Of a DNA stretch of 64,000 nt, positions 13,380 to 39,266 are shown piece by piece. The notes under the pieces were generated by a model that ran no database searches, was not told the origin of the DNA, and saw only the letters and a list, made by a program, of their open reading frames with translations. Each line of letters begins with the position of its first letter. The stretch's first letter is position 1. The position numbers and the translations under genes were made by a program. Location of the stretch: positions 1-64,000 of the IMG/VR virus record IMGVR_UViG_3300011442_000001; one strand, 5' to 3'. The DNA is from a virus (lineage: Duplodnaviria; Caudoviricetes).

Positions 13380-13754
13380 TTATTTGATTATTGTTATTTG
13401 TCTCGATAACTGTTCCAATATAGGAAGGAATTTTACTACTGCTACTAAAATTCCCAAAGTAAAGGCTATGGTTTGTATAACAATCGCTCCCCCTACAAAC
13501 CTAGTCCAATATCTAATATCCCGCAGAAAAGCATCATGATTGCGTACAGTTTCTCTAAGAGGCGGTTCCCCGTTCCCTAAAAGGATTACCTTGTTCAATA
13601 TGCTTATATCCTTTTGAATATCGTTTAAAGCTGTGTTCATTGTTATGATATTCATATTTATCTTTTGACTGTCCGTTAATGTTGGTGTTAAATCTATTGG
13701 TGCTATTTCACTCATTATGAGTCTCCCGTCTCTATCCCAAAGTTTTTCGTTCAT
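13380..13754 (-). CDS. Coiled-coil plus TM protein, possible holin
   Basis: C-terminal hydrophobic helix, adjacent to the lysin. Confidence 0.55.
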   Translation of the reverse strand: MNEKLWDRDGRLIMSEIAPIDLTPTLTDSQKINMNIITMNTALNDIQKDISILNKVILLGNGEPPLRETVRNHDAFLRDIRYWTRFVGGAIVIQTIAFTLGILVAVVKFLPILEQLSRQITIIK

Positions 13755-34102: not shown

Positions 34103-34237
34103 TTATTAAAATCCTTTCCTTCATTTTATATACAGCAATCTGCTGTTAATATCCTTATTTACCTACCAGTTGAGTACTGATAGTTTTTACTGCCCAATTT
34201 CCTCTTGCGGCCTTCCATGCGTCCACCACGGCTCGCA

Positions 34238-35104
34238 TCATAGCGCCAGCCTGTAAGCGGTGGTTGCATTATTTAAGCCGCCCGCGATATAGACGTAACT
34301 GCCAATAGCACATGCCCCGGTTTGCAGGCTGGCATAAGGCAGGGACACGGCATGAGTAGTCCATGAGTCCGTCAGTGTGTCATAAACATAAATCGCCGTT
34401 GTTCCGGCAAAGGTCGCATCTGCTCCGCCGATCACATAGAGCTTGTTACCGATGACCTCCACTTCCTTGTAGCAGGTTCCTGCAGGCAGCGCCGCAACGG
34501 TACTCCATGAGTCACCCGCCGGATCATACTTATAGACCGTTGTTACCGGGTGGAGGGATGTCGGGTAATCGGTCATATCATTTGTTGCACCGATGGCATA
34601 AATATATCCATTGCAAGCCGCGCCAAAATCACCAAGAGCCTTTGCAACAGGTAGAGCCGCCTTTGTGCTGTCCCATGTGTCGTTGCTCGTGTCATACACG
34701 TACATCTGTGTTCGTGGAACATTACTGCCTGACAATCCTCCAAAGACGTAAATCTTCGTCCCAATGACGGCGCTCCCCATATCCTCCAACCCAACAGGAC
34801 AAGCGGTCTTTTCCGTCCATGTGTCCGCAGAAGGGTCATACTCGTACACGTTGCCATAATATGCCGGGACGTTCTGGTTATAGCCGCCGATGTAGTAAAG
34901 TTTGCTTCCTACAGCTCGCATGATGGCAGATTGCCGGAACGCCTGTGCATAAGGCAAATCTGTCAACACTCTCCACTGGTCAACGGATGGGTTGTATTCA
35001 TACATCTTTTTTCCACTGGCTCCACCGGCGCAATATATCTTGCCGTTACATACTTCCATTCCGTGTTGAGACATAGAAGCCGGGATTGTGGCAAGCTGTA
35101 CCAC
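34238..35104 (-). CDS. Kelch-repeat beta-propeller, probably translated as a -1 frameshift extension of 35131-36540
   Basis: Six repeats of K(I/L)YxxGG...YDPxxDxW; no SD sequence directly before the GTG. Confidence 0.85.
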   Translation of the reverse strand: MVQLATIPASMSQHGMEVCNGKIYCAGGASGKKMYEYNPSVDQWRVLTDLPYAQAFRQSAIMRAVGSKLYYIGGYNQNVPAYYGNVYEYDPSADTWTEKTACPVGLEDMGSAVIGTKIYVFGGLSGSNVPRTQMYVYDTSNDTWDSTKAALPVAKALGDFGAACNGYIYAIGATNDMTDYPTSLHPVTTVYKYDPAGDSWSTVAALPAGTCYKEVEVIGNKLYVIGGADATFAGTTAIYVYDTLTDSWTTHAVSLPYASLQTGACAIGSYVYIAGGLNNATTAYRLAL

Positions 35105-35130
35105 GTTCGGCGTATTCGGCTCGCCAGCCT

Positions 35131-36540
35131 CTAAAAACCCTGCAACACGGCAAGCGCCGCCGCCGGGATGGTGTAGGGATAGGACACGAAGAAAGCGCCG
35201 GTTGTAAAGCCTGTCACTTTTGCCGTGGTCAAGAGCGCACCGGATGAGGCGGACGAATAGGTCAGGACGGTTCCCGCTGCATTGGCAGGGTTGATAGGTC
35301 GCGCCTGTACTCCGATGTGATTGGCCGCCAGAACATTATTGAAGATCCAAATCTGGTAGACCGTCGCGTTTGTCCACGTCCGCGCCTGGGATGCGCGCTC
35401 GGTGGCTGTTCCACTAACTACCTCAAATATTTTCATGGTGCTGTTGGCCTGGTCGCATTGGATATACCAGCGATCATTATCTGATGTGTAACGGAGATTG
35501 ATTATCAATACTTCATTCGTGGCACACGTCCACTTGAAATAAATGTACCCGTTCGCATCGTGCGTGATTGAGTCGCCGCTGGCCGGTGTCTGGTTATTCC
35601 CGGTTGCGATCCCCGTCAGGCTGTTCCAGGGACTAGGCAGGATTGCGACCTTCATTGCGTCAACTGTGAAATTTAAAGCATTGGCGCGGACACCTACGCC
35701 CGGATACCAGTTACCCGTCCCGGTCAAATCGGCCCAAATAAATTTATCTCCAATCACTTCTAGTGCGCCGGTGGTTTGCAGGATGGAATAGCGCACATGC
35801 GGGAAGGAGAGAGTGACAATCAGATTACCTGATGTGAAACCATCGCTGGCAGCGGAGATTATGTTATTTCCCGCCGCCACGATGTTTGTAGTTGCCCTGG
35901 CGTTCCCTGCCGCAGTGTTCCCCCATCCCGCGATAACGTTTGTGTTGCCTGTGGTCACGGCGGCAAGCGTGATTGCAGCACATAGCCCAGCGGCCCGCGT
36001 GGTCTGTGGCCCTGAGTATCCTTCATTGTTTACGCCCGTCCCATTGACCACCAGTTTCCCACCGGCAAGGCTCATAATGCTATTCGCGTCCGTAATTGTC
36101 GCGGTTCCTGGCCCCGGCTCCGCTGTGCGCGGCGTGGCAATTGGCGCGGCGTCGTCCGTGGTAAACGTATCGTTGAACAACATCAAAATGGTGACAATGC
36201 TAAATTGAGTTGCGGCAACGTTGCCATTCCCGGCCCCGTCTACACAGACACCCGCGCCAATATCCACGGTCATTGTCCCGGCTACGGACGGCGCAAGGTC
36301 GAACGTGTAAACCGCTCCCGATCCGGCGAAGTTTGACAATGTAACCGTCCCGCCCGAAATAGCTGCGGTCACATCGCCCGAAGTAAACCCGGTCACGGTC
36401 TCCGAGAATGTAGCCGTGAAATTCAGCGGCGTGGTTGCCGTTGGCCCGGTCTGCGTGCAGGTGATCGCCACAGTCGGCGCGATGTTGTCAGCCGCTCCCC
36501 CACTCGCCAGGTACATCAATAACGCCGCGCGCCTATTCAT
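35131..36540 (-). CDS. Ig-like domain virion/surface protein
   Basis: DNIAPTVAIT...TATFSETVTGF...DGAGN bacterial Ig-like fold; high GC. Confidence 0.75.
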   Translation of the reverse strand: MNRRAALLMYLASGGAADNIAPTVAITCTQTGPTATTPLNFTATFSETVTGFTSGDVTAAISGGTVTLSNFAGSGAVYTFDLAPSVAGTMTVDIGAGVCVDGAGNGNVAATQFSIVTILMLFNDTFTTDDAAPIATPRTAEPGPGTATITDANSIMSLAGGKLVVNGTGVNNEGYSGPQTTRAAGLCAAITLAAVTTGNTNVIAGWGNTAAGNARATTNIVAAGNNIISAASDGFTSGNLIVTLSFPHVRYSILQTTGALEVIGDKFIWADLTGTGNWYPGVGVRANALNFTVDAMKVAILPSPWNSLTGIATGNNQTPASGDSITHDANGYIYFKWTCATNEVLIINLRYTSDNDRWYIQCDQANSTMKIFEVVSGTATERASQARTWTNATVYQIWIFNNVLAANHIGVQARPINPANAAGTVLTYSSASSGALLTTAKVTGFTTGAFFVSYPYTIPAAALAVLQGF

Positions 36541-36585
36541 TGCCGCCTCCCGAACTCAGAAACTTTATTTTATTCATGCTATTTA

Positions 36586-37080
36586 TTAAGATTCGTAGAC
36601 TAAATGGGCGTAAACGCCACTAGCGGCATAAACTCCCAAAGAAGTAATTCCACCATAAGGCCCAGCTATTCTTACATTACCGTCAGGAACATAAATTCCA
36701 GCCGCCGTAGGAGAAGCTGTAGTATTGACAGCCCCATAAACTTTTCCGCCCTCTGCCATAATCCAGATAGTTTTTGTTCCATTGGGAATGGTGGCATTTT
36801 GGTTTGCAGCACTAAGAAAAGAAAGAACCTGCTGTCCCAAATAAGTTCCGGGAAGCAATGAAGCTACGCCACTAATTGTAACTATTTCATTGTCTAAAGA
36901 AACCTTGACATCTGATGCACGTAATTGGGTATCAGTAAGTGGGCCAGACACAGGGACTGGGGTAGCCCTAAGCTGGGCGTCAGTCAGTCCACCAGAAATG
37001 GTAACAGTTCCTCCTCCACCAGAGTCATCAATATCTACAAAATTTCCAGTATCAGCATCTATAACAGTATGAGTTGTCAT
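36586..37080 (-). CDS. Virion accessory/decoration protein
   Basis: Internal repeat LTDAQLRA/LTDTQLRA; follows the capsid gene. Confidence 0.55.
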   Translation of the reverse strand: MTTHTVIDADTGNFVDIDDSGGGGTVTISGGLTDAQLRATPVPVSGPLTDTQLRASDVKVSLDNEIVTISGVASLLPGTYLGQQVLSFLSAANQNATIPNGTKTIWIMAEGGKVYGAVNTTASPTAAGIYVPDGNVRIAGPYGGITSLGVYAASGVYAHLVYES

Positions 37081-37138
37081 TTAATAATTCCTTATATAAG
37101 TAGGGGAGGAGTATTTCATCCTCCCCCTTTTATTTGTT

Positions 37139-37576
37139 TTAGCTTACGTTTCTAGAAACGTTTTTTAGAGCCATAAGCTCTCCAATGCATAAGTAGTCCT
37201 GCTCAGTATAGTGTGAATTATTTCCTCTTTCTATTCTACTTAAACAATAATTTATCATTATGTCTAATTCTTCTCTCTTGCAAAAAGAATAATTCACAAC
37301 CATTTCACAAAATTTCAGTATTTCCTTTAGTCCAGTTATAACTAATCTATAAATAGTACCGTTCTTAGCAGAACGAAGGTGACAACCTATGTTATTAGAT
37401 TCCAGGAATACTTCAATTTGGTTCAGTATTTTTCTATCTCTCTGTGTTATAACTATTTGTGGAAGAATTAGTTCTGTCTTTATTTCTTTGTTTCTTCCAT
37501 ATCTAAAATGAGAATATAGTCCAACACTCCCTTCCCCATCAAAAAATCCTGCTAAATATTCAATTGTAATTTTCAT
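37139..37576 (-). CDS. Free-standing single-motif LAGLIDADG endonuclease
   Basis: YLAGFFDGEGSV...ITQRD; start MKITIE at 37576 after GGAGG. Confidence 0.9.
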   Translation of the reverse strand: MKITIEYLAGFFDGEGSVGLYSHFRYGRNKEIKTELILPQIVITQRDRKILNQIEVFLESNNIGCHLRSAKNGTIYRLVITGLKEILKFCEMVVNYSFCKREELDIMINYCLSRIERGNNSHYTEQDYLCIGELMALKNVSRNVS

Positions 37577-37657
37577 TCTACCTCCGATAGTAGAATGAGG
37601 GGAGAGTGACATCTTCGGACGGATGCCATTCGCTTTTCCGAAAGCTATCTCCCCTCA
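37574..37657 (-). promoter_or_regulatory. Structured leader sequestering the endonuclease RBS
   Basis: 10-bp closing stem with two inner hairpins, plus an 8-bp CATTCTAC/GTAGAATG stem containing the ATG with GGAG in the loop. Confidence 0.65.
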
Positions 37658-37676
37658 ATATTATTTTATTTACAGG

Positions 37677-39266
37677 CTATGAAACATCCAAAACGAATAT
37701 TCCATCTGCACGGTCAATAATCATACCGAACTGCTGGTAAAGTTCCAAATACCACTGTGGAGGAGTTGGCTCCATGTTTGTCCACTGCTTATCCTTTACG
37801 TCTCCATAAGTAATGAATTCACCTACGCCCTCGCCGATAACAAGAATCTTGTCTTCAGGTAGTAGAGCATTGTAGTCAGCAGGGTTGTCGTAAATCTGGT
37901 CTAGGGCTACTAGAGGTACACCGTAGTAACGTCCAAGAATACCATTCTGCATGATTTCTAGGATTGTCTCAGGTGCAAAACCTACGTTTGTACCGTCTGA
38001 CCAGAATGCACCAAACTTGGTGATAGGAGTCATTGCGGCACGTGTTCCAATAACAACCTTTGCACCAGAAGTGTGAAGATTAACATAGTTAATCGCATTC
38101 TCTAGTGCTGTGGCTGTAATAGGCCCACCAACTGCTGTGAAGTTATTTGGAGTATTTACAGATGTCCAGACTGTTGAAAGGGCAGTAAATACTTTGTTTA
38201 GATAGTAATCAGCAAGCTTGGCTGACATTTCCTTACGGATGTCCTCCACGCTACCAATTTCTCCAGAAGCTAGTTCCCCGAATTGTTACTACTTTTATTT
38301 TTAAAAGCGGTTATACATTTCTGTATAACTCTTTATGTCTCCATAAAGACCGGACTATATCTTCGCTAAAAAGCGTTTGGCATATAGTCTCTGAGGATTT
38401 TGAGAGATTTTTCTACTTTATCTTGATGTCCATGCAATAACTTAATTCTTCTCATTATATCTACATCCCATTCGTCATAATAAACGTTCTTACTTCCAAT
38501 CATAGAGTATCTCTTACTACACCACTCTTGAAGTAAAATAGCTTCTTCTTTTTTACCTACTAGATTTTCAATTAGTATAGGAAGAAACTTCATAACTCTT
38601 CTTATACCAGATACTTCTATTCTGTATCTCTTTTTCCACTTTTCTGTAGCTTCCTTTTCGTTTACCCAGAAAGGAATTTCTAGTAGCTTTAGTATTTCTA
38701 TTATTTTATTTATTATTTGAATATCTGTATTTATAATTGTTATTACTGGTCTTATCAATGGTTGCTTGCCTTTTCTTGCGTGAAAGGTCATTGTTACTGT
38801 CCCTTCACCATCAATTATTCCGCATAACCAACCAATATCTCTCAATCTTTCCTGCTGATTTTCCATTTTTATTATCCTTTCTCTTGTCACTTAGTTAGTA
38901 AGAAGGCTTTAGGAGGTTCCAGCATTTAGCCAAATTTTACATGAGCAGGGCTGTAGGGGATAATCCTAACTCATTGTAAGTAACCTTCACATCTGCTCCG
39001 TCCAACACATAGTTGATACGGTCACGAACTGTGATTTCACTTGCTAGATGAATGGAACCGGGAACTAGAGTACGAACCTTGATTCCCTTGCGTACTTTCT
39101 TTACGAGAGCATCGCCGGGGTTCAAAGAACGAGTCGTCAATAGCATACTTACAAAATCATTTGTAAGATGATTGGGTTGCACATACTCAATAATAAGCTG
39201 TGCTAGAGCCTCGCGGTCGCCAGCCTTAAGCAACTCAGCGATGGCTTCCTTATAATTCTTTTCCAT
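37677..39266 (-). CDS. Major capsid protein, spliced: join(39266..38969, 38278..37677), 299 aa
   Basis: Splicing restores ...VTYNE-W-ELASGEIGSVEDIRKEM...; position after the protease and decoration genes. Confidence 0.9.
38279..38968 (-). mobile_element. Group I intron (690 nt) in the major capsid gene
   Basis: P1 ATGAGT/GCTCAT with U-G splice-site pair; AAATGCTGGAA (P), AATCAGCAG (Q), TCAGAGACTA (R), AAGATATAGTCC (S); terminal G. Confidence 0.93.
38366..38866 (-). CDS. Intron-encoded LAGLIDADG homing endonuclease
   Basis: WLCGIIDGEGTV; start probably MENQQER, overlapping the intron Q and R elements. Confidence 0.88.
   Translation of the reverse strand: MENQQERLRDIGWLCGIIDGEGTVTMTFHARKGKQPLIRPVITIINTDIQIINKIIEILKLLEIPFWVNEKEATEKWKKRYRIEVSGIRRVMKFLPILIENLVGKKEEAILLQEWCSKRYSMIGSKNVYYDEWDVDIMRRIKLLHGHQDKVEKSLKILRDYMPNAF

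Follow-up and report, generated by a model that had tools for sequence, protein, structure and literature searches.

A candidate programmed -1 frameshift between an Ig-like, lectin-type protein and a Kelch propeller in a Caudoviricetes virus

In a stretch of viral DNA of 64,000 nucleotides (nt), here called the window (Duplodnaviria; Caudoviricetes; positions 1 to 64,000 of the IMG/VR record IMGVR_UViG_3300011442_000001), an open reading frame (ORF) for an Ig-like, lectin-type protein is directly followed, in the -1 frame, by the coding sequence of a Kelch beta-propeller. All features of the window described below lie on the minus strand. The upstream ORF (35131..36540) encodes a protein of 469 amino acids (aa), P0001, and is preceded by the Shine-Dalgarno (SD) sequence GGGAGG at 36546..36551. 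Its 3' end reads ...GTG TTG CAG GGT TTT TAG. The final two sense codons form the slippery heptamer G_GGT_TTT (35134..35140) in X_XXY_YYZ phase, and the stop codon TAG (35131..35133) follows immediately, within the run TTTTTAG. A one-base back slip after QGF gives the -1 reading GFLEAGEPNTPNVVQLATIP / LEAGEPNTPNVVQLATIP, which is open until the stop at 34238. This continuation (34238..35134) consists of a 13-residue linker, LEAGEPNTPNVVQ, followed by a complete Kelch beta-propeller and the stop codon at 34240-34238. Between stop codons, the -1 frame is open from 35335, and beyond the junction it runs for 298 further codons without a stop, covering the whole propeller. The conceptual -1 fusion product, built by script from the window, comprises 767 aa. 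The original prediction had described an ORF ending in CAG GGT TTT TAG with a heptamer at 35140-35134 directly before the stop, a stop-free passage into the Kelch ORF and isoforms of 469 and about 767 aa; sequence and phase of the heptamer are correct, the frame is indeed open from 35335 to 34238, and both conceptual sizes are right.

The 469-aa protein starts with MxRR and a hydrophobic peptide, and its residues 18-112 correspond to a Big_12 Ig-like domain (PF19078, E value 3e-11). The AlphaFold2 model, with a predicted local distance difference test score (pLDDT) of 82, adds two beta-sandwich domains and a C-terminal helix (residues 460-468). In Foldseek searches, the sandwiches matched tandem galectins, laminin-G pairs and many phage LamG/ConA-like proteins. 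Together with Pfam and the family alignments A1 and A2, this describes P0001 as a Big_12 domain followed by two ConA/galectin-like jelly rolls. The -1 ORF, P0002, encodes a Kelch propeller according to the Kelch_1 model (E value 1e-34) and related Pfam models, shows weaker similarity to the NanM and galactose-oxidase propellers and is probably sugar-binding. Its AlphaFold2 model (pLDDT 94.8) has all-beta blades; the read-in residues 1-8 are disordered, and the first strand lies at residues 13-15.

Comparison with other proteins showed that the joined product has natural counterparts encoded in one frame. The 767-aa product aligned with the single-ORF protein P0159 in one high-scoring segment pair (118-767 versus 21-666, E value 6e-114) with a one-residue gap in the linker, and with the single-ORF protein P0144 likewise in one stretch (291-767 versus 81-561, E value 8e-80). 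P0159, which has 667 aa, contains the central domain of P0001 (blastp 118-466 versus 21-359, E value 2e-32) and then the propeller. An exhaustive HMMER search with the Kelch part found the nearest single-domain Kelch relatives to be 42-58% identical. In about 23 of the 27 nearest Kelch relatives examined, the propeller stands at the C-terminus of proteins of 500-750 aa whose N-terminal parts are LamG/ConA-like, sometimes with Big_12 ahead; P0115 combines Big_12, LamG and Kelch, and the phage loci L088-L091 encode the same arrangement in one ORF. The 0-frame stop coincides with the usual C-terminus of the 469-aa family (alignments A1/A2): standalone members end where P0001 ends, and P0009 also terminates with LQGF. 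At the identical junction, other family members carry in-frame extensions, namely an SGNH esterase (P0022-24, P0034) or another domain (P0030). Because the 767-aa product is colinear across the junction with natural single-ORF proteins, the conclusion that the two ORFs belong together as parts of a single type of gene is, as judged from sequence comparison, well supported, and the Kelch ORF is most readily understood as extending the Ig-like protein at its C-terminus.

Scans of viral, metagenome and genome contigs with alignment A2 yielded 90 loci, none of which encodes Kelch. The downstream genes checked at these loci begin normally, at the stop or shortly behind it, with the exception of locus L001 (see below). 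The Kelch-based viral scans returned only in-frame fusions or unrelated Kelch genes. Some Kelch homologues of standalone size (283-288 aa) lack the first strand: P0192, P0230 and P0233 begin at the conserved internal Met of an LAxMP motif, and P0229 and P0231 begin just ahead of it. Judged by their sequences, these five may be ORF calls truncated at the first ATG of a start-less frame.

We then inspected the Kelch frame for start signals. No ATG, GTG or TTG is present between 35335 and 35105, and the earliest possible start is a GTG (35102..35104) that encodes the first residue of the first beta strand. The original prediction had noted that no SD lies near this GTG, and in agreement with this, no SD core was found within -18..-4 of it; among the 63 ORFs of the window, 44 have an SD core at this distance and 19 are without a clear one. 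The GTG is located 26 nt past the TAG in GC-rich, self-complementary sequence, and such surroundings do not favour de novo initiation. Most relatives of the 469-aa family have a separate gene downstream, with a start that overlaps or abuts the stop (ATGA, TAATG); the start-less junction of the window is not the family norm. Probably, the 288-aa 'Kelch gene' starting with this GTG is not an independent gene.

In-phase X_XXY_YYZ heptamers occur at 97 of the 17,337 codon positions of the window (0.56%). No codon separates G_GGT_TTT at 35140 from its stop, which holds for no other of these heptamers, and at only three of them (27256, 13458 and 35140) does the -1 frame continue over a long distance. 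Given the roughly 63 gene junctions of the window, chance would place a heptamer on the two final codons ahead of a -1 downstream ORF in about one window in 10, and the heptamer by itself is therefore not decisive. The site at 27256-27250 is an A_AAA_AAA of the tail-chaperone type, located 6 codons upstream of the stop of a 242-aa ORF, and its 95-codon -1 extension reaches the tape-measure gene. The third site, an in-phase TTTGGGA at 13452-13458, precedes a stop by 23 codons, and in -1 the reading continues into the next gene (359 codons). Since this downstream gene has its own strong SD, the site is probably a chance look-alike and a useful control for the frequency of such look-alikes.

The best single explanation for these observations is a programmed -1 frameshift from the Ig-like into the Kelch ORF, to which we assign a probability of about 0.5. 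Both ORFs would then represent one accessory gene of the head module that is decoded in two ways. The majority of ribosomes would stop at the TAG and release the 469-aa protein with its Ig-like domain and two lectin-type jelly rolls, whereas a minority would slip by -1 on G_GGU_UUU. With the stop codon next in line, tRNA-Gly would re-pair from GGU to GGG, and tRNA-Phe would do so from UUU to UUU. The slipped ribosomes would pass through the linker into the Kelch propeller and produce the 767-aa isoform, which would add an extra, probably sugar-binding, module to a protein that probably sits on the capsid. In favour of this decoding, U_UUU ranks in the top three tetramers in E. coli, and heptamers of the R_RR.U_UU.Y type are still shift-prone (Sharma et al., PMC4066793). 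The phage also has a standard tail-chaperone site, the A_AAA_AAA described above. Further support comes from the other 214 homopolymer runs of at least 5 nt inside the ORFs of the window, none of which breaks a frame; the assembly is therefore not indel-prone.

Several results weigh against a frameshift. In E. coli, G_GGU_UUU shifts at only 0.065% unaided, at 0.33% with the IS911 stimulators and at 3.8% with the strong IS3 pseudoknot, compared to 0.28, 3.8, and 43% for G_GGA_AAG under the same three conditions (PMC4066793, Table S3). Any long isoform would therefore probably be made in a low ratio, and slippage, if it occurs, would probably reach a few per cent or less. Stimulators of such sites are either 3' structures (a hairpin or a pseudoknot some 5-9 nt away) or SD-like sequences on the 5' side; no SD-like stimulator or tract was found upstream of the heptamer at 35140-35134. 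Searches of a phage collection with the DNA and protein sequences gave no hits, no relative was found to carry the cassette formed by the two ORFs, and the nearest homologue of P0001 is 43% identical. Kelch homologues of standalone size exist (P0156, P0158, P0227). The slippery T run is itself a mutational and sequencing hot spot, and a T6 would give the identical 767-aa protein from one ORF. Finally, the propeller in the model begins precisely with the residue that the GTG encodes, so that a separate Kelch product is structurally possible.

The original prediction had proposed a compact H-type pseudoknot, and the complementarities on which it was based (GGC/GCC and GGCG/CGCC) are present 4 nt 3' of the heptamer. 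On paper, the sequence GGC-U-GGCG-A-GCC-GAAUA-CGCC (35109..35129) is a weak candidate that could form either an H-type pseudoknot of 3+4 base pairs (bp) or a GGCU/AGCC hairpin. Knot loops of 1, 1 and 5 nt look sterically feasible, and a 4-nt spacer is below the usual length. Taken separately, the stem energies are about -3.7 kcal/mol (-6.1 as the competing 4-bp hairpin) and -5.3 kcal/mol. The minimum-free-energy fold is the 4-bp hairpin with z = 0.2 versus shuffles, local folding gave z = 0.2 and -1.0, and an Rfam search returned no match at the junction. The pairings exist, but the structure is minimal, with just 7 bp as a knot or 4 bp as a hairpin, and does not exceed shuffled sequence in stability. 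In shuffles, 0.13 all-GC 3+4 knots are expected per 2.3 kb, and this one is the sole example in the GC island that spans the two ORFs; this strict definition was set after viewing the sequence, a relaxed definition gives about 20 per 2.3 kb, and the apparent rarity is entirely a matter of definition. That the compact pseudoknot acts as a frameshift stimulator is therefore rather doubtful, and as a pausing element, the stop codon next to the heptamer may matter at least as much as the GC structure.

Two other explanations have to be weighed against the frameshift. In one, an in-frame fusion ancestor resembling P0159 lost one T from a T6 run in the linker, either by a real and recent mutation or as an assembly error. 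If the loss was real, the phage would make the 469-aa protein only and the Kelch part would be a fresh pseudogene, perhaps with trace leakage; a variant of this explanation assumes mixed T5/T6 populations and a switch resembling phase variation. Single-ORF fusions that are colinear across the junction do exist, T6 restores exactly the same 767-aa protein, homopolymers are hot spots for indels, and the T5 at the junction is one of only four runs of at least 5 nt in the GC island. Moreover, the cassette is recent and its slot dispensable, so that selection may be relaxed, and the heptamer is a weak shifter in E. coli. Such an indel would, however, have had to land in a linker of about 13 codons within a 767-codon gene, to create an immediate stop at the normal C-terminus of the family and to leave a perfect in-phase X_XXY_YYZ. 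The ancestral GGT TTT TTA would also require codons that are uncommon in the island (GGT, 13 of 77 Gly codons; TTA, 3 of 45 Leu codons). No other decay is seen in the 298 Kelch codons, whose modelled product has the high pLDDT given above, none of the 214 other homopolymer runs in ORFs of the window breaks a frame, and a T5/T6 tract is short for phase variation. Taken together, we regard the loss of a T as unlikely.

The other explanation is that of two ordinary genes, in which a 288-aa Kelch protein is made from GTG 35104 by re-initiation 26 nt past TAG 35131 (translational coupling) and the heptamer is there by chance. This would fit most relatives of the 469-aa family, in which the downstream gene is separate with its start at or over the stop, as well as the Kelch homologues of standalone size and the modelled propeller, which begins at the GTG-encoded residue behind disordered read-in residues. 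A clear SD is absent from 19 of the 63 ORFs as well, and TTTGGGA at 13458 exemplifies that in-phase heptamers leading into downstream genes occur by chance. Against this, the presumed start is a GTG without SD at a distance from the stop and in GC-rich, self-complementary sequence, whereas the relatives that use coupling have overlapping stops and starts. About 23 of the 27 nearest homologues fuse the propeller behind a jelly-roll domain, two homologues are fused to the 469-aa family itself with the same linker length, and several of the 'standalone' homologues start at the internal LAxMP Met and may be truncated calls. Independent initiation thus also appears improbable. Three further candidates were rejected. 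Stop-codon readthrough is incompatible with the position of the two ORFs in different frames, five identical nucleotides in a row are generally too few for transcriptional slippage, and a function of the tail-chaperone type was discarded as the gene lies in the wrong module.

One further junction in the 469-aa family resembles that of the window. Directly behind the family member of locus L001, a GH29 alpha-L-fucosidase-like domain (Pfam E value 2e-30) is encoded in the -1 frame (L001:6344-7267). The two frames overlap by 16 nt, 68 nt are without a start codon, and a C_CCU tetramer is located two codons before the stop. Folding of this junction gave z = 0.0, and no structure stands out. This may be another cargo that the family gains by frameshifting, or the assembly may be in error here; we consider L001 a lead rather than evidence.

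The two ORFs are located in the head region of the phage genome. All genes are on the minus strand, in the order terminase, portal, 452-aa gene, 189-aa gene and capsid gene, followed by a free-standing LAGLIDADG gene, a 164-aa ORF, the Ig-like ORF and the Kelch ORF, and past these by a 173-aa and a 174-aa gene, a glycosyltransferase gene and the tail genes. A sharp island with a GC content of 50-60%, compared to about 40% in the surroundings, covers exactly the Ig-like and Kelch ORFs (34238..36540), and the two therefore travelled together. The region between the capsid gene and the 173-aa gene (34103..37676) is a variable slot. In kin phages, which were found by their portal protein (54-72% identity) and have kept the gene order, this slot is either empty, with the 173-aa gene within about 100 nt after the capsid gene (L116, L117, L118), or, in the closest kin (L119), occupied by a different ORF of 775 aa, P0226, at native GC content. 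P0226 has a jelly-roll-like N-terminal part followed by SGxLxSSGxLxK repeats. Since the GC island is foreign and the slot of the kin is empty or otherwise filled, the whole cassette is a recent import into the variable slot behind the capsid gene.

In five unrelated viral contigs (L001, L004, L006, L010, L014), a gene of the 469-aa family follows the major head gene at a distance of 0.4-2.3 kb, and that of the window lies within the same range. From this conserved position near the capsid gene, a head-associated role of the 469-aa protein is plausible. The original prediction had gone further and proposed that the two isoforms are made at a fixed ratio and that the Kelch propeller is displayed on the virion; both points are inferences. 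The M-x-R-R sequence with a short hydrophobic stretch (residues 1-17 of P0001) is common to members of the family (alignment A1) and resembles a signal or anchor peptide, and at L004:6422-6500 the downstream beta-helix protein begins with a Tat-like RRAFLK motif. Because of these N-termini, export from the cell may be an alternative fate for proteins of this family instead of virion display.

The neighbouring capsid gene is present in two pieces (38937-39266 and 37677-38249) around a LAGLIDADG ORF (38366-38890), and the corresponding sequences are contiguous in one frame in the kin phages L110, L112, L114 and L116-L119. The split fits an intron-type insertion in this phage only. About 650 nt past the capsid gene of L114, a short duplicate (L114:5832-5924) encodes the C-terminal 31 residues of the capsid protein with 81% identity to that of the window, and this may be the scar of an endonuclease or intron event. 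With the free-standing LAGLIDADG endonuclease gene beside an imported cassette, it may be doubted that their vicinity is a coincidence.

Frameshifting of this kind has well-known precedents. By -1 or +1 shifts, C-terminal domains are appended to coat or tail proteins of T3, T7, A2, A118, A500 and PSA (PMC5009743), and domains of the binding type spread by non-homologous recombination, land in or out of frame and are in some cases then expressed by frameshifting (Atkins et al. review, PMC5009743). As in T3 gene 10 and T7 gene 10A/10B, a head-module gene would, through a -1 shift close to its 3' end, yield a minor, C-terminally extended isoform beside a major short one, and in T7 gene 10, too, tRNA-Phe acts on a U run at a G_GU U_UU-type site (PMC5009743). 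Unlike in T3 and T7, the carrier would be an accessory lectin-like protein, known here from sequence alone, and not the major capsid protein, and the extension would be a whole propeller of 285 aa compared to about 50 residues or an Ig-like domain. With the Ig-like frameshift extensions (Fraser et al. 2006; Lactobacillus A2; Listeria A118, A500, PSA; PMC5009743), the cassette shares a mobile binding-type domain joined either in frame, as in P0159 and P0144, or out of frame, as in the window, whereas its cargo has a Kelch fold. The tail chaperone G/GT of the lambda type, of which this phage has its own A_AAA_AAA version, also combines a canonical X_XXY_YYZ with a nearby 0-frame stop, but differs in gene, function and motif and in that the G/GT site is conserved. 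The closest relatives are the jelly-roll and Kelch proteins of uncultured phages (P0159, P0144, P0115, L088-L091), which have the same domain order and linker length, with propellers 36-58% identical to that of the window and, in P0159, a central domain about 30% identical. They are encoded in one frame and are without a published function.

In the literature library searched, no paper linking Kelch, phage and programmed frameshifting was found. The mechanism would be a textbook one with a new and much larger cargo, and the gain is modest. In its most far-reaching form, the proposal is that of a recently imported cassette with its own recoding signal, in which a low-efficiency -1 shift at G_GGU_UUU_UAG, helped by the minimal GC knot and the stop codon, would add a Kelch propeller to the tip of a capsid-associated lectin in just a few of its copies on each virion, and in which the family may reuse the trick with other cargo. 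This extended picture is tentative, a possibility we would still place below even odds. For annotation, similar start-less Kelch ORFs in metagenomes may be mis-called. If the -1 frameshift between the Ig-like and Kelch ORFs is real, C-terminal extensions of phage surface proteins by frameshifting would not be confined to small Ig-like additions, a full-size, probably glycan-binding propeller could be delivered in sub-stoichiometric amounts, and recoding signals could move between phages together with a mobile cassette.

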